64,000 bases of DNA from Candidatus Omnitrophota bacterium (lineage in GTDB: Bacteria > Omnitrophota > Gorgyraeia > Duberdicusellales > 4484-171): positions 19,014 through 83,013 of the forward strand of contig PMCS01000009.1 of NCBI GenBank assembly GCA_003154195.1, given 5' to 3'. The stretch's first letter is position 1. Each line of letters starts with the position of its first letter. Below the pieces are notes generated by a model. It was not told the DNA's origin, made no database searches, and saw only the letters and a program-made list of their open reading frames with translations. Made by a program: the position numbers and the translations under genes. This document shows positions 769 to 10,720 of this stretch, piece after piece.

Positions 769-1584
769 ATGAAAAGTTTAACAAAGATTTTAGTAATGGC
801 CTTGGTGATTGCCGCGGGCTTGGGTTTTCCATGCTTTGCGGAAAAAATTGTTGTCGAAGGCTCAACTACCGTTTTACCGATTGCTCAAAAAACTGCTGAA
901 GTATTTATGCAAAAAGACAGTAGCGCCGATATCTCGGTACGCGGCGGCGGTTCAGGCGTGGGCATAGCTTCTTTACTCGACGGTACCTGTGATATCGCCG
1001 ATTCTTCGCGGCCAATCAAGGATACCGAGCTCGATAAGGCAGTAACTAACGGCAAAGATATTAAGGCGCATGTTATCGCGATGGATGGGATTGCCGTTAT
1101 CGTTAACCCGGCAAATAAAGTGGGGGCTTTAACCAAGAAACAGGTAAGGGATATTTATACCGGTAAAATTTCCAACTGGTCGCAAGTTGGCGGTGATGAC
1201 CGTAAAATCGTAGTTATTTCGCGCGATACGTCGAGTGGAACATTCGAGGCATTTGGAGAACTGGCTTTAGACAAACAAAAAGTAAGGCCGGATGCTTTAA
1301 TGCAGGCATCGAATCAGGCGATCGCGTCTACCGTAGCGCGGACACCCGACGCTATCGGTTATGTAGGTTTAGGCTTTCTTAGTTCCAGTGTCAAAGCTTT
1401 AGAGCTAGATGGCGTCGTGCCTTCGAAGGAAACTGTACTCAATAACAAATATTCTATTGGCAGGCCGCTATTTATGTATACCAATGGTAAGCCTAAGGGT
1501 TTGGCAAAAGATTTTATTGATTTTATAAAGAGTCCGGAGGGGCAAACGCTTGTGGACGAAGAAGGCTTTGTAAGCCTACATTAA
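769..1584 (+). CDS. pstS: Phosphate ABC transporter substrate-binding protein PstS (operon 1)
   Basis: Signal peptide followed by a PBP fold with GSGVG, SRP and TNG motifs; strong RBS aaggagg; first gene of a pstSCAB-phoU cluster. Confidence 0.85.
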   Translation: MKSLTKILVMALVIAAGLGFPCFAEKIVVEGSTTVLPIAQKTAEVFMQKDSSADISVRGGGSGVGIASLLDGTCDIADSSRPIKDTELDKAVTNGKDIKAHVIAMDGIAVIVNPANKVGALTKKQVRDIYTGKISNWSQVGGDDRKIVVISRDTSSGTFEAFGELALDKQKVRPDALMQASNQAIASTVARTPDAIGYVGLGFLSSSVKALELDGVVPSKETVLNNKYSIGRPLFMYTNGKPKGLAKDFIDFIKSPEGQTLVDEEGFVSLH

Positions 1585-1620
1585 TAACGCCGGCGTAATT
1601 GCTGGTTTATTATATATAAC

Positions 1621-1663
1621 GAAGCGCGCGGTGGTTCCGCCCTTTCCTTCCGCCGCGCGCTTC
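1621..1663 (+). promoter_or_regulatory. Perfect 11-bp GC hairpin (gaagcgcgcgg…ccgcgcgcttc) in the pstS-pstC intergenic region; likely partial terminator or mRNA stabiliser
   Basis: Seen in the sequence; the position matches the known pstS/pstC intergenic attenuator arrangement. Confidence 0.4.
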
Positions 1664-1709
1664 TCTTATTGTAAAAATATATGTGATTGCTTGACGCAGG
1701 TAGAAACAG

Positions 1710-2594
1710 ATGACAAAAATAAAAGAACGAATAATAAAAGGGATTTTTACGATTTTGGCATTCGCTTCCCTCATATTTTTAGTAGGCATTATTATTGTTT
1801 TATTCAGAGAAGCGCTGCCGATTTTTAAAAAGATCAAGGTATTTGAATTCATCTTCGGTAAATTCTGGTATCCGACCTATGACCCGGCGGAATTTGGAAT
1901 CTTACCTTTAATTCTGGCTTCAATCTGGGTTTCAACTGGAGCAATGTTAATTTGTGTGCCGTTGGGCGTGGGCAGCGCATTGTATCTGAATGAACTTGCC
2001 AGTCCTGGACAAAAAGCAATACTTAAGCCGTTAGTCGAGATTCTGGCGAGTATCCCTTCGATTGTATACGGTTTTTTTGGGATGGCGATACTTGCGCCAT
2101 TTTTGCAGAATTTATTTCATTTATCGATAGGCTTGTGTGCATTTACCGCCGGGTTGACTTTAGGGATTATGGCGACACCGGTAGTCTGCAGCATTGCCGA
2201 GGATGCATTAAGCTATGTGCCGAGATCGTTTAGAGAAGCGTCTTTTGCCGTAGGCGCTAACCGGTGGCAAACGCTGATCAAAGTGGTTATACCGGCTGCC
2301 GGATCGGGGATTTCGACGGCGATAATTTTAGGGATGAGCCGGGCGATAGGTGAAACCATGACAGTTTTAATGGTGGCCGGCGGGGCCGCGGTTATCCCTA
2401 AGTCATTCTTTGATCCGGTCCGGCCGATGACGGCAGCGATTGCCGCGGAAATGGGCGAGGCTCCTATGGGCAGTGACCACTATCATGCTTTGTTCGCCAT
2501 TGCGCTGATATTATTTTTGGTTACTTTTATCTTTAACGTTATCGCGGAAGTTGTCAGCCGAAAATACAGGATTAAATTGGGTCTATCAGGATAA
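1710..2594 (+). CDS. pstC: Phosphate ABC transporter permease PstC (operon 1)
   Basis: Multi-TM permease with an EAA-like loop (…ALSYVPRSFREASFAVGANRWQT…); operon context. Confidence 0.85.
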   Translation: MTKIKERIIKGIFTILAFASLIFLVGIIIVLFREALPIFKKIKVFEFIFGKFWYPTYDPAEFGILPLILASIWVSTGAMLICVPLGVGSALYLNELASPGQKAILKPLVEILASIPSIVYGFFGMAILAPFLQNLFHLSIGLCAFTAGLTLGIMATPVVCSIAEDALSYVPRSFREASFAVGANRWQTLIKVVIPAAGSGISTAIILGMSRAIGETMTVLMVAGGAAVIPKSFFDPVRPMTAAIAAEMGEAPMGSDHYHALFAIALILFLVTFIFNVIAEVVSRKYRIKLGLSG

Positions 2595-2680
2595 CCGGAA
2601 AAATGAGAAAACTCATTTTTCCGGTTAGGTGCTGCCTGACGGCAGGGAAAAATATAGTTCAGCGTTTAAAAACTAAAATT

Positions 2681-3571
2681 ATGAAAAAAGAGGATAAAAG
2701 AACTATCTGCCGACAGGCAGACAGTTCCCGAATTAAACAAAAAATAGGCTTTGGCATCATATCCCTGTGTATGTTTACTACAGTCTTGTTTTTGTTCGCG
2801 ATAATTTGCTTTATCGGTGTAAAGGGGATAAGGGTTATTTCATGGGAATTTTTAACGCAGGCACCGCGTGATTCTATGACTGCCGGCGGTGTAGCTCCCG
2901 CTATCGTGGGAACAATTTGCCTTACGTTAGGCGCAGTATTATTTTCTTTTCCTTTAGGGGTAGCCTGCGCGATATATCTTTGTGAGTATACGCCAAAGAG
3001 CTACATCGTGAATATCATAAGAATCAGTATTAATAATCTTGCCGGCGTGCCTTCGGTGGTGTTTGGTCTTTTTGGATTAGCGGTTTTCGTCAAATATTTT
3101 GGTTTCGGGGTGTCGATACTCTCAGGAAGCCTTGCTTTGGGGATTGTGGTTTTACCGGTGATTATTTCCGCGGCCCAGGAGGCGCTTTTGGCCGTACCCC
3201 AATCATTAAGAGAAGCATCGTTGGCCGTGGGCGCAACAAAGTGGCAGACAATAAAAAAGTTAGTTCTACCGGCGGCAATGCCGGGTATCTTGACTGGGGT
3301 TATTTTAAGCATCGGAAGAGTAGCCGGTGAAACCGCTCCAATTTTATTTACCGCAGCCGCCTTTTATTTAAAAGGTTACCCCAAATCTATTTTTTCCGAA
3401 GTGATGGCTCTGCCATATCATATTTATGCGCTTATGACCGAAGGTTCCCATCCGGATCAACAAACTGCGATAGCTTATGGCTGTTGTTTGATCCTTTTAT
3501 GTTTAGTTTTGTTGGTGTCAGCAATAGCGATTTTTATCCGCCAGAAGCAGAGGAGCTATTATCATGGATAA
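2681..3571 (+). CDS. pstA: Phosphate ABC transporter permease PstA (operon 1); the ORF is open from 2603 but ATG 2681 is the likelier start
   Basis: PstA-like TM core with the …[24 protein letters not shown]… loop; overlaps the pstB start. Confidence 0.8.
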
Positions 3572-4331
3572 CCAAACGTCGGTAAAGATTAAGGCACAGG
3601 ACGTAAATTTTTTTTACGGGAAACACCAGGCATTGAAAAATATAAAACTGGATGTTTTAGCCAATCAGGTTACTGCGATTATCGGCCCTTCGGGCTGCGG
3701 AAAATCTACCTTTATCCGGCTGCTTAATCGTATGAACGAATTAGTCTCCAATACTGTTTTAACCGGAAGAATTTATCTGGATGGGCAGGATATATTCGCT
3801 TCTTGCGTTGATTCAGTCGAGATTAGGCGGCGTGTCGGGATGGTATTTCAAAAACCCAACCCCTTTCCCAAGAATATATTTGAAAACATAAGTTACGCTC
3901 TCGAGGTTAATGGCATTAAAAATAAACAATTTGTCGAAGAAAGGGTGATAGAATCTTTCAAGAAGGCGGCGTTATGGGATGAGGTGAAAGACCGGCTTCA
4001 TGACAGCGCGCTAAAATTATCCGGCGGACAACAGCAAAGGCTTTGCATTGCCCGTTGCCTGGCGATCAAGCCGGAGGTGATTTTGTTCGACGAACCCTGC
4101 GCCAGCCTCGACCCTATTTCGACGCGCAAGATCGAAGAGCTGATTCTGGAGTTGAAAAAAGATTATACTATTGCTATAGTTACGCACAATATGCAGCAGG
4201 CGGCAAGGGTATCTAACTATACTGGTTTTTTTCTTTTAGGCGAGTTGATCGAGTTTGATAAAACTGAAACGATATTCAAGTCTCCCAAAGATCAGCGGAC
4301 AGAAGATTATATTACAGGGAGGTTCGGATAA
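3564..4331 (+). CDS. pstB: Phosphate import ATP-binding protein PstB (canonical; operon 1)
   Basis: Walker [11 protein letters not shown]-loop VFQKPNPFP, signature LSGGQQQRL, Walker B ILFDEP, H-loop VTHNM. Confidence 0.9.
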
Positions 4332-4332
4332 T

Positions 4333-4731
4333 ATGAAAAGAATCTTATTTGTTTGTATAGAAAATTCCTGTCGTAGCCAGATTGCGGAAGGGTTTGCGAG
4401 GTTTTTCGGTAAAGATATTTTAGAAGCATACAGCGCGGGTTCGCGGCCTTCGGGAAAAATAAATCGTATGGCGATAGAAGTCATGCAGGAAATCGGTATT
4501 GATATCTCACGTCAGAAATCAAAAGGATTTCAGGAATTAGCGGTAAAGGGGTTTGATTATGTTGTTACGCTTGGTTGCAAAGACGTATGCCCTTTTATAC
4601 CGGCAACAGAACATATAGAATGGCAAATCAGCGACCCTGAGGATAAGCCAATAGAGTTCTTCCGAAAAGTCAGAGATGATATAAAAGTTAAAGTAGAAGA
4701 ACTTATACAAAATATTGAAGAAACAAAATAA
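4333..4731 (+). CDS. Arsenate reductase (thioredoxin-coupled ArsC) / low-molecular-weight protein-tyrosine phosphatase family protein embedded in pst operon 1
   Basis: N-terminal CX5R P-loop (VCIENSCRSQIAEG), about 130 aa, LMW-PTP/ArsC fold; ATG at 4333 immediately after the pstB stop. Confidence 0.65.
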   Translation: MKRILFVCIENSCRSQIAEGFARFFGKDILEAYSAGSRPSGKINRMAIEVMQEIGIDISRQKSKGFQELAVKGFDYVVTLGCKDVCPFIPATEHIEWQISDPEDKPIEFFRKVRDDIKVKVEELIQNIEETK

Positions 4732-4741
4732 GGGGGATACT

Positions 4742-5413
4742 ATGCAAAGGCATTTAGATGATGAATTAACCGGCTTAAAGACAGAGATACTCAGGATGGG
4801 GGTGATGGTGGAGGAGTCCATTTTTAAATCGGTTGAAGCCCTCAAGCAATTAAATGCCGATGACGCCCGGCAAGTGATTGTAGATGATAAGCTAATCGAT
4901 GAGCTGGAATTAAAAATCGAAGAGAAAAGTTTGAATCTTCTGGCTCTATACCAGCCGATGGCGGTTGATTTAAGATTTATCGTAATGGCGATGAAGATTA
5001 CTACCGATTTAGAACGGATGGCTGACTTGGCTGTTGATATCGCCCAACGCGTTCTGGAGATTGTTGATAAGCCGCCTTTAAAGCCGTTGATTGATATTCC
5101 TAAGCTTACAATTATCGCCCAGCAGATGACCAAAGACGCTATCAACGCGTTCGTAAACAAAGATTCCGATGCTGCCGCTAAAATGATTTTGATGGATTCG
5201 CAAGCGGATGATTTACGCAATGTTGTGCAACAAGAGCTAATCAATGATTATATGGCTAAAGATCCGACTACTGCTGACCGGGCTGTTCCACTTTTACTGA
5301 TCGCCAGGCATCTTGAACGAATATGCGACCATGCTACCAACATCGCAGAAGATGTAATTTATATGGTGAATGCCGCTGTTGTTAAACATCATCCCGAAAA
5401 AATTAAAGATTAG
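4742..5413 (+). CDS. phoU: Phosphate signalling complex protein PhoU (operon 1)
   Basis: Two PhoU repeats (…DLERMADLAVDIAQR… / …ARHLERICDHATNIAEDV…); RBS aagggggat before ATG 4742. Confidence 0.85.
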   Translation: MQRHLDDELTGLKTEILRMGVMVEESIFKSVEALKQLNADDARQVIVDDKLIDELELKIEEKSLNLLALYQPMAVDLRFIVMAMKITTDLERMADLAVDIAQRVLEIVDKPPLKPLIDIPKLTIIAQQMTKDAINAFVNKDSDAAAKMILMDSQADDLRNVVQQELINDYMAKDPTTADRAVPLLLIARHLERICDHATNIAEDVIYMVNAAVVKHHPEKIKD

Positions 5414-5478: not shown

Positions 5479-5525
5479 AAAACCTTCGTTGGTTTGATTA
5501 TAACTGGCGAAGGTTTTTTGTTTTG
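5479..5525 (+). terminator. Candidate rho-independent terminator after phoU (operon 1)
   Basis: aaccttcg…cgaaggtt stem followed by ttttttgttttg. Confidence 0.4.
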
Positions 5526-5661: not shown

Positions 5662-6513
5662 ATGTTAAAAAAATGGCTGTTCGTTCTAATTACGATTTCC
5701 TTCACAACTTCAGCTTTTGCGGCAAAAGATAAAAATTCGATACAGGTCAAAGGCTCGGATACCATGGTTAACCTGGGCCAGGCCTGGGCGGAGAAATACA
5801 TGGAGAAGAATCCTACTGATTTTGTGGCAGTTACCGGCGGCGGGTCAGGCACAGGATTATCAAGCCTCATAAGCGGCACTTGCGATATAGCTACGAGTTC
5901 CCGGAACATCAAAGAAAAAGAAATCTCTCTCGCTAAGCAGAAAGGCATAAACCCTAACGAAATCAAAGTTGCCTTAGACGGCCTTGCGGTGGTAGTTAAT
6001 CCGAATAATCCTGTTGGTAAACTTACCTTAGCCCAACTCGCGGATATTTTTACCGGAAGGGTCACTAATTGGAAGGAATTGGGAGGCAAAGGTGAGAAGA
6101 TCGTTGTGCTCTCGCGCGAAGTCAATTCCGGAACTCACGTTTATTTTAAGGAGCACGTATTAAGAAAAAATGATCCTAACAGCAAAGAAGAATTCGTTTC
6201 AAGCGCTTTAATGCTTTCGTCTTCCCAGGCGATTGCTGATGAAGTGGCGGGAAATTCCGCCGCCGTTGGGTATTACGGAATGGGCTACATATCGAAAAAG
6301 CAAAAACCCTTGAGCTTAGCCAAAGATGAAAAGTCGGAATATGAAATGCCGACGATAGAGAATGTCGTAAATGGGAAGTATCCTATTTCAAGGCCGTTAT
6401 TCCTTTACACCAATGGCGTACCGACAGGCCTGGTAAAGAAATTTGTAGATTTTACACTTTCCCAGGAAGGCCAGGATATTGTTTTGGCAACTGATTTTGT
6501 TCCGATTAAATAA
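5662..6513 (+). CDS. pstS: Phosphate ABC transporter substrate-binding protein PstS (operon 2)
   Basis: Signal peptide, PBP fold with GGGSGTG/SSR motifs; RBS aaaggagg. Confidence 0.85.
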   Translation: MLKKWLFVLITISFTTSAFAAKDKNSIQVKGSDTMVNLGQAWAEKYMEKNPTDFVAVTGGGSGTGLSSLISGTCDIATSSRNIKEKEISLAKQKGINPNEIKVALDGLAVVVNPNNPVGKLTLAQLADIFTGRVTNWKELGGKGEKIVVLSREVNSGTHVYFKEHVLRKNDPNSKEEFVSSALMLSSSQAIADEVAGNSAAVGYYGMGYISKKQKPLSLAKDEKSEYEMPTIENVVNGKYPISRPLFLYTNGVPTGLVKKFVDFTLSQEGQDIVLATDFVPIK

Positions 6514-6551
6514 AATTACCTACGGGTGATTTTATCCCGTTAGCGAGAATA

Positions 6552-6677
6552 CCCCCGCCGTTAGGCGGGGGATGACAACAGGATGGGACGTCGCCCCACC
6601 CCGTGGGGCTCCAGTTTAATCCCGACGAGTATGTGAAAATTATCGTAGAGAATTTTCACATATTTTACGAGTCGGGG
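6552..6677 (+). promoter_or_regulatory. Cluster of GC hairpins (cccccgcc-gtta-ggcggggg; ccccaccccgtgggg; tgtgaaaatt…aattttcaca nested in cccgac…gtcggg) between pstS2 and pstC2
   Basis: Seen in the sequence; same position as the operon-1 hairpin. Confidence 0.4.
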
Positions 6678-6691
6678 TAATCTTAATACTA

Positions 6692-7555
6692 ATGCGTAGA
6701 TTAAAAGAATTCATTATTGAAAAACTCATTCTAATCTGCGGGTTAGCTTCAATATTTTTTGTGGTGTTGATTTTCCTTTTCTTGCTCAAAGAAGGGCTTG
6801 CGGTATTTAAGACGGTAAGCCCTTTTAAGTTTCTCTTGGGCAAGAGCTGGTACCCCATTTCAGAACCGCCTCAGTTAGGAATTCTTCCGTTAATCCTTGG
6901 CTCTTTACTGGTTACTGCCGGCGCGGCGATCATTTCTATTCCCATAGGAGTGGGTTGCGCAATTTATATCGCCGAGATAGCGCCATTAAGAATCAAAGAG
7001 ACCCTTAAAGCAGGGATTGAATTATTGGCAGCCATTCCCAGCGTAGTTTTAGGATTTATCGGTATGATAACCCTCGTTCCATTAGTAAAGTCAATTTTTC
7101 ATTTACCAACCGGATTAACCGCTTTATCCGGTTCAATAATGCTGGCTTTTATGGCCATGCCGACAATAGTTTCAATTGCTGAAGATGCATTATATTCTGT
7201 ACCTAAAACGTATAAAGAAGGCGCTCTCGCGCTGGGAGCGACACACTGGCAGACAATATGGCGAGTAATGCTTCCGGCGGCATCAAGCGGCATCCTTGCG
7301 GCAGTTATGCTTGGGATTGGCAGGGTAATCGGTGAAACAATGGCCGTGATGATGATCACGGGTAACGCCGCAGTCATACCAAATAGCATTTTAGCGCCGG
7401 TTAGAACTTTGACTGCTACTATCGCCGCGGAAATGGGTGAAGCGGTAGTAGGCAGCGAACATTATTTTGCTTTATTTGCTATTGGCATAGTTCTGTTTGT
7501 TATTAGCTTTGCGATTAATGTAACCGCGGACTTATTCTTGCACAAGAGGCAGTAA
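6692..7555 (+). CDS. pstC: Phosphate ABC transporter permease PstC (operon 2)
   Basis: Homologous to operon-1 PstC (…EDALYSVPKTYKEGALALGATHWQT…). Confidence 0.85.
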   Translation: MRRLKEFIIEKLILICGLASIFFVVLIFLFLLKEGLAVFKTVSPFKFLLGKSWYPISEPPQLGILPLILGSLLVTAGAAIISIPIGVGCAIYIAEIAPLRIKETLKAGIELLAAIPSVVLGFIGMITLVPLVKSIFHLPTGLTALSGSIMLAFMAMPTIVSIAEDALYSVPKTYKEGALALGATHWQTIWRVMLPAASSGILAAVMLGIGRVIGETMAVMMITGNAAVIPNSILAPVRTLTATIAAEMGEAVVGSEHYFALFAIGIVLFVISFAINVTADLFLHKRQ

Positions 7556-8403
7556 TGAAAAATCCTTATCGAACACAAAAGATTGCATTTTTCTTTTTAT
7601 TCCTGGCGACACTTTTAATAGTGGTTCCGGTAGGCTTAATCGTTGTCGTTATTATTCAAAAAGGACTGCCGGCAATCAACTGGCAGTTCGTTTCGGATAT
7701 GCCAAGACAGGGGATGCGTGCCGGCGGCATATTCCCGGCGATCGTAGGAACGATATATTTAGTTACCGGCGCTATTATCTTTGCTCTGCCGATAGGGCTT
7801 CTCGCGGCCATATACTTAAGCGAATATTCAAAAGATAACTTACTTACCCGGCTTATAAAATTAGCCATCGTGAATCTGGCGGGTGTGCCTTCGGTAGTTT
7901 ATGGGCTTTTTGGCCTGGCCCTTTTTGTAGTATTTTTTAAATTCGGCGCATCAATTATTTCCGGCTCGCTTACCCTGGGGATCATGATTCTCCCCGTAAT
8001 TATTACTACTTCACGCGAAGCCTTGGAAAGTGTACCGTATTCTTTTCGTGAGGTAAGTTTATCTTTAGGCGCAAGCAAATGGCAAACCATACGCCACATT
8101 ATTCTTCCTAATGCCCTCCCGGGTATATTAACCGGAACCATTTTAGGTTTAGGAAGGGCAGCGGGAGAAACGGCACCGATTCTTTTTACGGTTGCTGCTT
8201 TTTATCTGCCACGATTACCCAATTCTATTTTTGATCAAGCAATGGCGCTGCCGTACCATCTTTATGTCATTTCAACACAAGTGCCTAATGTCGACGAGAA
8301 GATAAGGTATGGAACAGCGCTTGTTTTGCTGGCGTTAGTTCTCTTCATGAATTTAGTGGCAATAATTATTCGATATAAGTTCAGAAAGAAGAAAAAATGG
8401 TAA
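7555..8403 (+). CDS. pstA: Phosphate ABC transporter permease PstA (operon 2)
   Basis: Homologous to PstA1 (…REALESVPYSFREVSLSLGASKWQT…). Confidence 0.85.
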   Translation: MKNPYRTQKIAFFFLFLATLLIVVPVGLIVVVIIQKGLPAINWQFVSDMPRQGMRAGGIFPAIVGTIYLVTGAIIFALPIGLLAAIYLSEYSKDNLLTRLIKLAIVNLAGVPSVVYGLFGLALFVVFFKFGASIISGSLTLGIMILPVIITTSREALESVPYSFREVSLSLGASKWQTIRHIILPNALPGILTGTILGLGRAAGETAPILFTVAAFYLPRLPNSIFDQAMALPYHLYVISTQVPNVDEKIRYGTALVLLALVLFMNLVAIIIRYKFRKKKKW

Positions 8404-9143
8404 AAGTTGACATAAAAAATCTTAATATCTGGTTTGGTTCCGTGCATGCCCTGAAGCAGGTAAGCATGGTAATACAGGCTAACGAAATCTTAAGCGTAAT
8501 CGGTCCTTCCAACAGCGGTAAGACAACTTTTTTAAGAACGCTTAATCGTTTAAGTGATTTAAACCAGAATTTTAGAATGACCGGAACAATAAAGCTTGAA
8601 CAAGAAGATATCGGGAATATTGATACGGAATTATTGCGTAAAAAAGTAGGCATGGTATTTGCGCTGCCGCTCCCGCTTCCCCTGTCTATTTTTGATAATG
8701 TGGCTTACGGGGTAAGGATGCACGGCACGAAAAACAAGAAAATACTGAGAGAGATAGTGGAGGTATCGTTGAACGAAGCCTATCTCTGGGAAGAGGTAAA
8801 AGATAGGTTAAATGAATCAGCTTTTAAATTGTCCGGGGGCCAGCAACAGCGTTTGTGTATCGCTAGAACCCTTGCCGTTGAGCCGGAGGTAATTTTATTT
8901 GACGAGCCCTGTTCGGGGCTCGATCCTATATCCACCGCAAAAGTAGAAGATGCCCTGGTTAAGCTAAAACAAAAATACACGATAGTCCTGGTAACCAACA
9001 ATGTAAAGCAGGCAGCCAGGGTTGGTGATATGACCGCTTTCTTTTTAGGCGGCGAACTTATTGAACTGGATAAAACAGACAAGATTTTTACCGCGCCGCA
9101 AGACAAACGCACGGATGGTTATATCAGAGGAAAATTCGGATAA
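8397..9143 (+). CDS. pstB: PstB paralog with degenerate catalytic motifs (operon 2, first of two)
   Basis: Walker [10 protein letters not shown] (atypical), Q-loop Gln replaced (VFALPLPLP), H-loop His replaced (VTNNV), but canonical LSGGQQQRL signature and Walker B. Confidence 0.8.
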
Positions 9144-9184
9144 TCCCCTTCGGGGAGGAAGCGCGACAAAAGAAGGAGGCTCCA

Positions 9185-9940
9185 CTGGCCAAGATTATAA
9201 CTAAAAATTTAAACTTTTGGTACACAACATTCCAGGCCTTGAAAAATGTTGGCTCAAGCATAGAGGCAAACAGGATTACCGCTATAATCGGGCCTTCGGG
9301 ATGCGGTAAATCTACTTTGCTTAGGGTCTTCAACCGTATGAATGACTTGATTGAAGGCGCGCGTACGGAAGGAGAAGTTCTCATCGACGATACTGATATA
9401 CTGGATCCCCGCACAGATTTAGTAGTTTTACGTAAAAAAGTAGGGATGGTATTCCAGAGGCCTAATCCGTTTCCGCTATCAATATATGAAAATATTGTTT
9501 TTGGAGAAAAGATTCACGCGGATCGCTTAACAAGAGATAAATTAGATGAAATTGTTGAGAGAAGCCTGGGGGATGTTCTTTTGTGGGATGAATTAAAGGA
9601 TCAGCTTAATGAACCGGCCATGAGGTTATCATTAGAGCAGAAACAGAGACTTTGCATAGCCAGGCTTATTGCCGTTAAGCCCGACGTATTGTTAATGGAT
9701 GAGCCTTGTTCTACTTTAGATCCGCAGGCAACAGCAAGAGTCGAAGAATTAATGCGTGAACTAAAGAACAGATATACTATAATAATAGTTACTCATAATA
9801 TGCAGCAAGCAGCACGGGTTTCCGACGATACGGGTTTTATGCTTTTAGGCGAACTGATAGAGTTTGGTAAAACACATGAAATATTTACCGCGCCGCAAGA
9901 CAAACGCACGGAAGATTACATTACCGGAAGGTATGGATAA
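9185..9940 (+). CDS. pstB: PstB paralog with canonical Walker A/Q-loop/H-loop but degenerate signature motif (operon 2, second). Proposed CTG start at 9185; the first canonical-type start in frame is TTG 9239
   Basis: [23 protein letters not shown], signature LSLEQKQRL. The conserved N-terminal beta-strand [21 protein letters not shown] is encoded upstream of the TTG, with no ATG/GTG/TTG in frame after the 9071 stop; perfect SD aaggagg at 9172-9178. Confidence 0.7.
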
Positions 9941-10042
9941 AAATATCCCGCTTCGTGATCACGCCGAAATTCTCTACGATAGTTTCGGCGTACTCGCGGG
10001 ATTTCGCTAAACAAAAAATTTTTGTGCTCAAGGAGGTTAGAA

Positions 10043-10720
10043 ATGGAAAGACATGTCGACCAGGAACTAAAAGAACTGAATAAAGATATCTTAAAGATGG
10101 GCGCTTTAGCAGAGGAAGCCATCTACAAATCCATCGAAGCGTTGAAGAACAGGGACAGGGAAATGGCCGGGAGTGTCATAGAGAATGATTCCAATATTGA
10201 TAAATTGGAATTAGCCATAGATGAAAAGTGTATTGATTTGATAGCGCTCTACCAACCTATGGCCAAGGACCTCCGTTTTATTACAACCGGCATGAAAATA
10301 AATAGTGAATTGGAAAGGATAGCGGATATTGCAGTAGATATTGCGCAACGTACGCTTGAAATAGTAGACAAACCCCTTTTAAAGCCGCTGATTGATATAC
10401 CTAAGTTAACCGCTATTGCGCAAAACATGGTAAAGATGTCCATCGATGCGTTTGTCAAGGGCGATATTGCCTTAGCGAAAAAAGTTTTATTATCTGATTC
10501 CGAAGCTGATCAGCTTCGGAATGTTATACAAAAAGAGCTTATTGAAGATTATATGGTTAAAGACGCAGCTACTGCGCCAAGGGCTGTCCAGCTGTTGTTG
10601 ATCGCTCGTTTTTTAGAGCGCATATGCGATCATGCGACGAATATCGCAGAAGACGTGATTTACATGGTTCAGGCAGAAGTTGTGAGGCATCACCCCGAGA
10701 AATTAAAGAATGGAAAATAA
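10043..10720 (+). CDS. phoU: PhoU (operon 2)
   Basis: Two PhoU repeats; RBS aaggagg before ATG 10043. Confidence 0.85.
   Translation: MERHVDQELKELNKDILKMGALAEEAIYKSIEALKNRDREMAGSVIENDSNIDKLELAIDEKCIDLIALYQPMAKDLRFITTGMKINSELERIADIAVDIAQRTLEIVDKPLLKPLIDIPKLTAIAQNMVKMSIDAFVKGDIALAKKVLLSDSEADQLRNVIQKELIEDYMVKDAATAPRAVQLLLIARFLERICDHATNIAEDVIYMVQAEVVRHHPEKLKNGK

Follow-up and report, generated by a model that had tools for sequence, protein, structure and literature searches.

A second pst operon in a Candidatus Omnitrophota genome encodes two PstB subunits with complementary motif degeneracy and a predicted single consensus ATP site

The stretch of Candidatus Omnitrophota DNA analyzed here (64,000 nucleotides of contig PMCS01000009.1, positions 19,014 to 83,013 of the forward strand; hereafter the window) carries two complete pst-phoU operons, arranged head to tail on the plus strand within its first 11 kb (769-5413 and 5662-10720) and separated by a terminator-like hairpin. 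Operon 1 encodes a single nucleotide-binding domain (NBD) subunit, PstB1, whereas operon 2 encodes two different ones, PstB-a and PstB-b, from adjacent genes. This report concerns that pair, in which catalytic motifs are degenerate in a complementary fashion: PstB-a departs from the canonical PstB in its Walker A, Q-loop and H-loop and retains a canonical signature, and PstB-b departs from it in the signature. The named closest homologues come from Candidatus Omnitrophota genomes assembled from metagenomes.

The pstB-a and pstB-b open reading frames are both present and intact, and they are surrounded by the pstS, pstC, pstA and phoU genes expected of a pst operon, the products of which pass their NCBIfam profile cut-offs. 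We judged membership in the PstB family by the NCBIfam TIGR00972 equivalog cut-off of 343.2 bits, applied to the whole protein. PstB1 scores 394.2 bits and PstB-b scores 367.9 bits, while PstB-a is only just over the cut-off at 345.7 bits.

We aligned PstB-a to Escherichia coli PstB (PDB 9k3x) with phmmer and anchored the E. coli numbering on the catalytic glutamate, E179, as in the published E179Q mutant. The motifs are spanned without gaps. Identity to E. coli PstB is about 50% for PstB-a and about 58% for PstB-b, and the two operon 2 proteins are only about 53% identical to one another. With about 50% identity to a solved PstB and ungapped motifs, the predicted fold of PstB-a is fixed. In Walker A, E. 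coli G46 and K49 correspond to N39 and K42 of PstB-a (GPSNSGKTT), and PstB-b is canonical there (GPSGCGKST, with K42). The Q-loop glutamine, Q98 in E. coli, is A89 in PstB-a and Q91 in PstB-b. The E. coli signature, LSGGQ (G156/G157), is found unchanged in PstB-a (residues 145-149) and reads LSLEQ in PstB-b, with L150 and E151 at the two glycine positions. Walker B is intact in both proteins, with D178/E179 of E. coli matched by D169/E170 in PstB-a (ILFDEP) and D172/E173 in PstB-b (LLMDEP). Finally, the H-loop histidine, H210 in E. coli, is N201 in PstB-a (VTNNVKQ) and H204 in PstB-b. PstB1 of operon 1 is canonical at every motif.

Much of this had been proposed in an earlier reading made from the letters of the DNA (the sequence-only reading), namely that operon 1 uses a single PstB, that PstB-a keeps LSGGQ and lacks the Q-loop glutamine and has asparagine in place of the H-loop histidine, and that PstB-b combines a canonical Walker A, Q-loop and H-loop with a degenerate signature. 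The alignment to E. coli PstB confirms the residue assignments, since the substituted positions are the catalytic Q-loop, H-loop and signature residues. The same reading also called the Walker A of PstB-a atypical, and this holds only in part. N39 does lie at the position of E. coli G46, but GPSNSGKTT still fits GxxxxGK[ST] and the asparagine is lineage-specific, and Walker A is the weakest of the PstB-a degeneracies.

Measured against the make-up of a competent ATP site, both proteins possess a Walker A of the form GxxxxGK[ST] and a Walker B of the form hhhhDE. PstB-b also has the Q-loop glutamine and the H-loop histidine, both of which are replaced in PstB-a. The P-loop of PstB-b faces the LSGGQ of PstB-a, whereas the P-loop of PstB-a faces the LSLEQ of PstB-b rather than a consensus signature. 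PstB-a nonetheless keeps K42/T43, D169/E170 and the aromatic A-loop residues W12/F13.

Table 1. Coordinates in the window of the two pst-phoU operons and of the substituted codons
Feature	Position	Strand	Remarks
pstS (operon 1)	769-1584	+	
pstC (operon 1)	1710-2594	+	
pstA (operon 1)	2603-3571	+	
pstB1 (operon 1)	3564-4331	+	fully canonical PstB, internal comparator; H-loop VTHNMQQ
small ArsC/low-molecular-weight (LMW)-phosphatase-like gene (operon 1)	4330-4731	+	between pstB1 and phoU1
phoU1 (operon 1)	ends 5413	+	
terminator-like hairpin	5479-5517	+	between phoU1 and pstS2; 16-bp stem then T-run
pstS2, phosphate-binding protein	5662-6513	+	TIGR02136 264.9 bits (cut-off 206.6); first gene of operon 2
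pstC2, permease	6692-7555	+	TIGR02138 295.5 bits (cut-off 196.45)
pstA2, permease	7555-8403	+	TIGR00974 300.5 bits (cut-off 193.45); 3' end overlaps pstB-a start by 7 nt
pstB-a	8397-9143	+	NBD with degenerate Walker A, Q-loop and H-loop; canonical LSGGQ
codon N39 of PstB-a	8511-8513	+	Walker A position 4; Gly in canonical PstB
codon A89 of PstB-a	8661-8663	+	replaces Q-loop Gln (E. coli Q98)
LSGGQ signature of PstB-a	8829-8843	+	canonical; would complete the consensus site
codon N201 of PstB-a	8997-8999	+	replaces H-loop His (E. coli H210)
a-b spacer, 41 nt	9144-9184	+	carries Shine-Dalgarno AAGGAGG at 9173-9179
pstB-b	9185-9940	+	canonical Walker A, Q-loop, Walker B and H-loop; degenerate LSLEQ; probable CTG start
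codons L150-E151 of PstB-b	9632-9637	+	replace both signature Gly (E. coli G156/G157)
phoU2	10043-10720	+	TIGR02135 204.7 bits (cut-off 130.25); ATG at 10043 after AAGGAGG; last gene of operon 2

We examined the conservation of these substitutions in two sets of relatives: the 120 closest database homologues of PstB-a, which are 84-100% identical to it, and 80 loci returned by a scan of one genome per GTDB species. The motifs VTNNVKQA and LSGGQQQRL are present in 120/120 of the closest homologues, and GPSNSGKTT in 111/120. Among the a-type proteins from the 80 loci, the Walker A asparagine is conserved at 96% and the Q-loop alanine and H-loop asparagine at 100% each. Both genes are present in 64 loci, and in every one of them an a-type gene with the H-to-N and Q-to-A changes is followed directly by a b-type gene with an L[ST]LE[QE] signature. 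The signature leucine and glutamate are each 100% conserved among the 64 b-type sequences. The submitters' labels of these paired loci are Omnitrophota, Planctomycetota (Sedimentisphaerales, Phycisphaerae), Krumholzibacteriia and Elusimicrobiota (Endomicrobiaceae, rumen lineages). The order pstS-pstC-pstA-a-b-phoU is found in full in 43 loci. As in the window, a canonical pst operon lies directly upstream in about eight related loci. Five more loci hold an a-type gene alone, and at least two of these (L020 and L063) end at or just past the gene. As a control, 11 matches from Paenibacillus and Gorillibacterium, at about 60% identity, are single canonical PstBs.

If a class-specific position is defined as one conserved at no less than 90% in each class, 12 positions are conserved in the a-type and differ from both the b-type and the canonical PstB. 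Three of these fall in Walker A, two in the Q-loop and four in the H-loop stretch, nine in all. In the b-type, the only invariant class-specific changes within catalytic motifs are those of the two signature glycines. Because the complementary pattern is invariant in the 120 close homologues and in 64/64 paired loci, it is not due to chance.

Comparison of the window with nine relatives gave ratios of nonsynonymous to synonymous substitution (dN/dS) of 0.04-0.06 for pstB-a and 0.03-0.10 for pstB-b, and purifying selection on both genes is therefore strong. Across the 64 loci, pairwise distances between a-type proteins track those between b-type proteins with r = 0.90 and a slope of 0.98, and therefore pstB-a and pstB-b have been inherited and constrained as a unit. 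The duplication that produced them must be old, given that the two proteins are only about 53% identical. A neighbor-joining tree recovers an a clade and a b clade in 28/30 and 25/30 bootstraps, respectively, each apart from the sampled canonical PstBs and not resolved as sisters. When the motif columns are masked, both clades persist in the best tree, with bootstraps of 5/30 for the a clade and 19/30 for the b clade. A single origin is likely rather than proven.

The pair also extends to more distant lineages. Of the 150 representatives of 50%-identity clusters that lie closest to PstB-a, about ten are a-type, and degenerate signatures, LSAEQ and LTEEQ among them, occur in several of the rest. 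One divergent a-type protein (P0185, from locus L081 of a high-GC genome) has GPAGGGKTS, VFATP and VTNNLRQ; its gene follows pstS-pstC-pstA, and the next protein is a b-type with the signature LPLEQ. P0185 has only a-type proteins among its 119 nearest homologues, with the Q-to-A change in 105/105 scorable sequences, LSGGQ in 117/119 and the H-loop VTN in 112/113 scorable sequences; the few with a name are from Sorangium sp. So ce260, Polyangiaceae and Gemmatimonadaceae. In the complete genome of Sorangium sp. So ce260 (CP150320.1), the gene order is pstS, a fused pstC-pstA, the a-type gene (VFATP and VTNNTKQ), the b-type gene (LTSEQ) and phoU. The PstC-PstA fusion upstream of this a/b pair and phoU is one protein of 594 amino acids (L084, 3220-5004). 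A Gemmatimonadaceae genome has a b-type with the signature LSAEQ. The a/b pair thus reaches records labelled as at least six bacterial phyla.

The Walker A motifs of the distant a-type proteins are GPAGSGKTS and similar, with glycine or arginine at the position of the asparagine. The Walker A asparagine is thereby ruled out as a defining feature of the a-type. Across the sequences compared, the universal core consists of the Q-to-A and H-to-N changes in the a-type and of the change of the second signature glycine to glutamate in the b-type, with the Walker A asparagine and the leucine of LSLEQ as features of particular lineages. Other signature variants were seen in the course of these comparisons. 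A single PstB-like NBD, P0167 (L083, 1962-2783), has the signature LSIGQ and the Q-loop LAQKPFPLP; its gene follows two permease genes and precedes a heme/siroheme biosynthesis cluster, and in a homodimer, should the protein form one, the deviant signature would be present at both sites. Signatures of the form LS[LIV]GQ occur in several other cluster representatives.

The 5' end of pstB-b required separate attention. The sequence-only reading placed this gene at 9185-9940, and the frame is intact over this interval and relatives begin at the same place, but the codon at 9185 is CTG rather than ATG, GTG or TTG. It lies 5 nt after an AAGGAGG sequence. In relatives, an ATG stands at exactly this position and mostly overlaps or adjoins the pstB-a stop codon, and the 41-nt spacer of the window is absent from most of them. 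Two other species (L006, 6745-6810; L025, 6745-6800) share the spacer insertion with the window, together with its Shine-Dalgarno sequence and the CTG. The first canonical start codon in the frame is a TTG at 9239, the use of which would remove the first beta-strand, and public gene calls begin pstB-b at an internal ATG, giving a 200-amino-acid product without Walker A. Both of these starts are ruled out by the loss of the conserved first strand or of Walker A. Because a perfect first strand and P-loop are encoded in frame upstream of that ATG, the 200-amino-acid call is an annotation artifact, and the probable start of pstB-b is the CTG at 9185. Gene callers truncate PstB-b in the lineage of the window because its start seems to be CTG and not one of the usual codons.

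In most of the 44 a-b junctions that we scored, the ATG of the b-type gene overlaps or adjoins the stop codon of the a-type gene, an arrangement that suggests translational coupling. A small hairpin in the spacer of the window was considered as a regulatory element and rejected, since its folding is not better than that of shuffled sequence (z = 0.53) and L025 lacks it.

The cryo-electron microscopy structures of Pst show that each ATP is held by both Walker motifs, A and B, of one PstB and the LSGGQ of the other, that one PstB sits on PstC and one on PstA, and that there is no regulatory domain, so that only ATP holds the NBDs together (PMC12976172). In a pair of non-identical NBDs with this geometry, one and the same composite site contains all of the a-type changes together with the changed signature of the b-type. 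The sequence-only reading had proposed that a head-to-tail dimer would have one consensus and one degenerate site, and this is supported by the residue mapping, the Pst geometry and the strict conservation. Site 1 would be formed by Walker A, Walker B, Q91 and H204 of PstB-b together with the LSGGQ of PstB-a; it would be fully consensus and would hydrolyze ATP. Site 2 would be formed by the P-loop of PstB-a, in which K42 is kept, with A89, N201 and the LSLEQ of PstB-b, and it is most likely catalytically silent. Nucleotide binding at site 2 has probably been retained, given that PstB-a keeps the P-loop lysine and threonine, Asp-Glu of Walker B and the aromatic residues of the A-loop. By analogy with exporters that have a degenerate site, site 2 may then serve as a stable hinge or an allosteric site.

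An a/a dimer would have two sites lacking the glutamine and the histidine, a b/b dimer would have two sites facing LSLEQ, and a consensus site would form only in the a/b dimer. From the composite-site geometry, this homodimer logic and the strict linkage of the two genes, the explanation that we consider best, and likely to be correct, is that the PstS-PstC-PstA importer of operon 2 is powered by PstB-a and PstB-b as an obligate heterodimer, in which a single site is catalytic. Each cycle would then cost one ATP instead of two. In the histidine importer, one active site is reported to be enough, according to Nikaido and Ames 1999 as cited in PMC3971661.

Several observations weigh against the single-site heterodimer and have to be considered together with the other explanations of the data. 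The catalytic Walker B glutamate (E170) is kept in PstB-a, as it is in all a-type sequences of the loci, and given this residue there may be residual hydrolysis at site 2. The leucine and glutamate of the b-type signature might block ATP-dependent closure at site 2 rather than permit stable binding. The single origin of the a-type clade is weakly supported (5/30) once motif columns are masked. On a 2.8-kb Elusimicrobia contig (L062), an a-type gene (640-1386) has no b-type gene downstream and no pstA upstream; its neighbors are an HNH-like gene on one side and hpt on the other, and the orphan, which carries the H-to-N and Q-to-A changes, could either reflect a misassembly or be a genuine solitary copy. 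Lastly, adjacent PstBs are not automatically heterodimeric, because PstB2 of Enterococcus faecalis alone can support uptake (PMC12096839).

The kept glutamate bears most directly on the idea that both sites of the a/b dimer hydrolyze ATP, with the asparagine, the alanine and LSLEQ only slowing or re-tuning site 2 in an importer that is kinetically asymmetric and spends two ATP. In other ABC (ATP-binding cassette) ATPases, a single mutation of the H-loop histidine or of the second signature glycine nearly abolishes hydrolysis. Here three independent catalytic elements of one site are replaced (the Q-loop glutamine, the H-loop histidine and both signature glycines), and the replacements are invariant across deep divergence. 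In addition, the degenerate signature of Pdr5/Cdr1, LNVEQ, has a glutamate at the second glycine, and the site does not hydrolyze ATP (PMC7756269, PMC8421411). We therefore regard two active sites as unlikely, although E170, K42 and D169 are conserved in PstB-a and the usual hallmark of a dead site, loss of the Walker B glutamate (PMC7544095), is absent; because that glutamate is retained, slow turnover at site 2 stays alive as an explanation. It is quite improbable, in our judgment, that PstB-a is instead mainly a regulatory or signaling pseudo-ATPase, coupled to PhoU/PhoR or sensing nucleotide or phosphate, and perhaps not permanently bound to PstC/PstA. Such a role would suit the presence of phoU after the pair in most loci, the known interaction of PstB with PhoU and PhoR (PMC12096839), the orphan a-type gene of L062 away from pst genes, and the narrowness with which PstB-a passes TIGR00972 (345.7 vs 343.2 bits). 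However, two NBDs are required by a type I importer, one each for PstC and PstA (PMC12976172), and a and b are all that operon 2 supplies; no consensus site would form in a b/b dimer; and PstB-a has kept its full length and a canonical signature, exactly what site 1 would need. The idea also overlaps the single-site heterodimer, since a degenerate site can be regulatory.

The two remaining explanations are effectively excluded. That PstB-a and PstB-b form alternative homodimers on PstC2A2 under different conditions, or that one of them serves operon 1, is very improbable. E. faecalis PstB1 and PstB2 are indeed functionally non-equivalent, and excess PstB2 can replace PstB1 (PMC12096839), but here both sites would be defective in either homodimer, the a-type gene has the b-type gene directly after it in 64/64 paired loci, the two genes evolve at equal rates, most of the scored junctions have overlapping or adjoining reading frames, and operon 1 has a canonical PstB1 of its own. 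Artifact or decay, whether through sequencing errors or through one copy being a pseudogene, is the least credible explanation of all. The pstB-b N-terminus without ATG, GTG or TTG and the gene calls that cut pstB-b to 200 amino acids could be taken to favor it. Against this, the same substitutions occur in 120/120 close homologues and in 64 independent species genomes, dN/dS is 0.03-0.10, and the first strand and Walker A are encoded in frame upstream of the called start, with the CTG and its Shine-Dalgarno sequence recurring in two other species. The concern attached to the sequence-only reading, that the substitutions might reflect errors or a pseudogene, is thereby removed.

How the single-site heterodimer relates to known systems can be stated by comparison. 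Canonical PstSCAB, as in E. coli (PDB 9k3x, 9k3y, 9k3s; PMC12976172) and in operon 1, has the same NBD architecture without a regulatory domain; operon 2 differs in having two different NBD genes instead of one, and in that one composite site lacks the Q-loop glutamine, the H-loop histidine and the signature Gly-Gly. Firmicutes and cyanobacteria are known to have tandem pstB genes, the motifs being canonical in E. faecalis, and a 2025 study of E. faecalis described tandem pstB paralogues as unstudied in any microbe before (PMC12096839). That organism provides the only tandem-PstB system studied genetically (PMC12096839). In Bacillus subtilis, PstBA and PstBB have been modeled as a heterodimer with no mention of degeneracy, and degenerate sites were noted only in the fused NBDs of RbsA and NupO (PMC11466899). 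Judged by their published descriptions, the Firmicute and cyanobacterial pairs resemble operon 2 in being adjacent, non-identical pstB paralogues within one pst operon, with a presumed or modeled heterodimer; the motifs of E. faecalis PstB1/PstB2 are canonical, whereas those of PstB-a and PstB-b are degenerate. RbsA and NupO are, like operon 2, uptake systems in which one ATP site is off consensus, and they differ in having their NBDs fused in tandem.

The exporters and channels with a degenerate site, among them TM287/288, TAP1/2, CFTR, MRP1, PatAB and Pdr5/Cdr1, follow the same complementary logic, with changes on the P-loop side in one NBD and in the signature of its partner, and the LNVEQ of Pdr5/Cdr1 shares with LSLEQ the Gly-to-Glu change at position four of the signature. 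They have a different transmembrane fold, however, whereas the system described here is a type I importer that depends on a binding protein and has its NBDs as separate subunits. Loss of the Walker B glutamate has been called a hallmark of degenerate sites (PMC7544095), and these proteins usually lose it, whereas PstB-a keeps it. The sequence-only reading had likened operon 2 to the heterodimeric exporters, and the likeness holds for the complementary changes within one composite site and fails for the Walker B glutamate; it concerns how the system would work and not family membership. In the full-text literature on PstB, tandem pstB and degenerate ABC sites, the coverage of which was incomplete, we found no description of a degenerate PstB pair, in agreement with the earlier statement that such a pair is undescribed for Pst. 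The principle of a consensus/degenerate heterodimer is thus familiar, and a conserved, multi-phylum Pst class built on it appears to be unrecognized.

A few other features of the window may be recorded. The small gene between pstB1 and phoU1 in operon 1 resembles LMW-phosphatase-type arsenate reductases, with 111 bits to TIGR02689 and 100 bits to TIGR02691, both under the cut-off; an ArsC-like gene in this position would fit the entry of arsenate through Pst. A tRNA scan found no tRNA genes in the whole window, and no Rfam family matches it at the gathering threshold. GC content climbs to about 0.52, with a strongly negative AT skew, around 36-40 kb.

Taken more broadly, the data raise the proposal of an old and large Pst class, spanning records labelled Omnitrophota, Planctomycetota, Elusimicrobiota, Krumholzibacteriia, Myxococcota and Gemmatimonadota, that would run on an obligate a/b heterodimer with a single catalytic site and one ATP per phosphate, in which the silent site could be a nucleotide-holding hinge or a regulatory input for PhoU/PhoR signaling. 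Among binding-protein-dependent type I importers, this class would be the first natural family to pair a consensus with a degenerate NBD site. We hold the case for this full proposal to be evenly balanced.

How many ATP an ABC importer spends per substrate, and whether both of its sites must turn over, are old questions, and most work on them so far has used homodimers engineered to be half-dead, HisP and MalK for example. Nature apparently offers a conserved and selected half-dead version of a well-understood importer, with a canonical sister operon in the same genome as a natural control and the solved E. coli structure as a template. Because the a/b variant is present in a cultured organism, Sorangium, it is directly testable. 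Annotation pipelines label PstB-a and PstB-b both simply as PstB. If the single-site mechanism is true, it would mean phosphate uptake at half the ATP cost in the lineages that carry the a/b pair, which are probably for the most part energy-limited.

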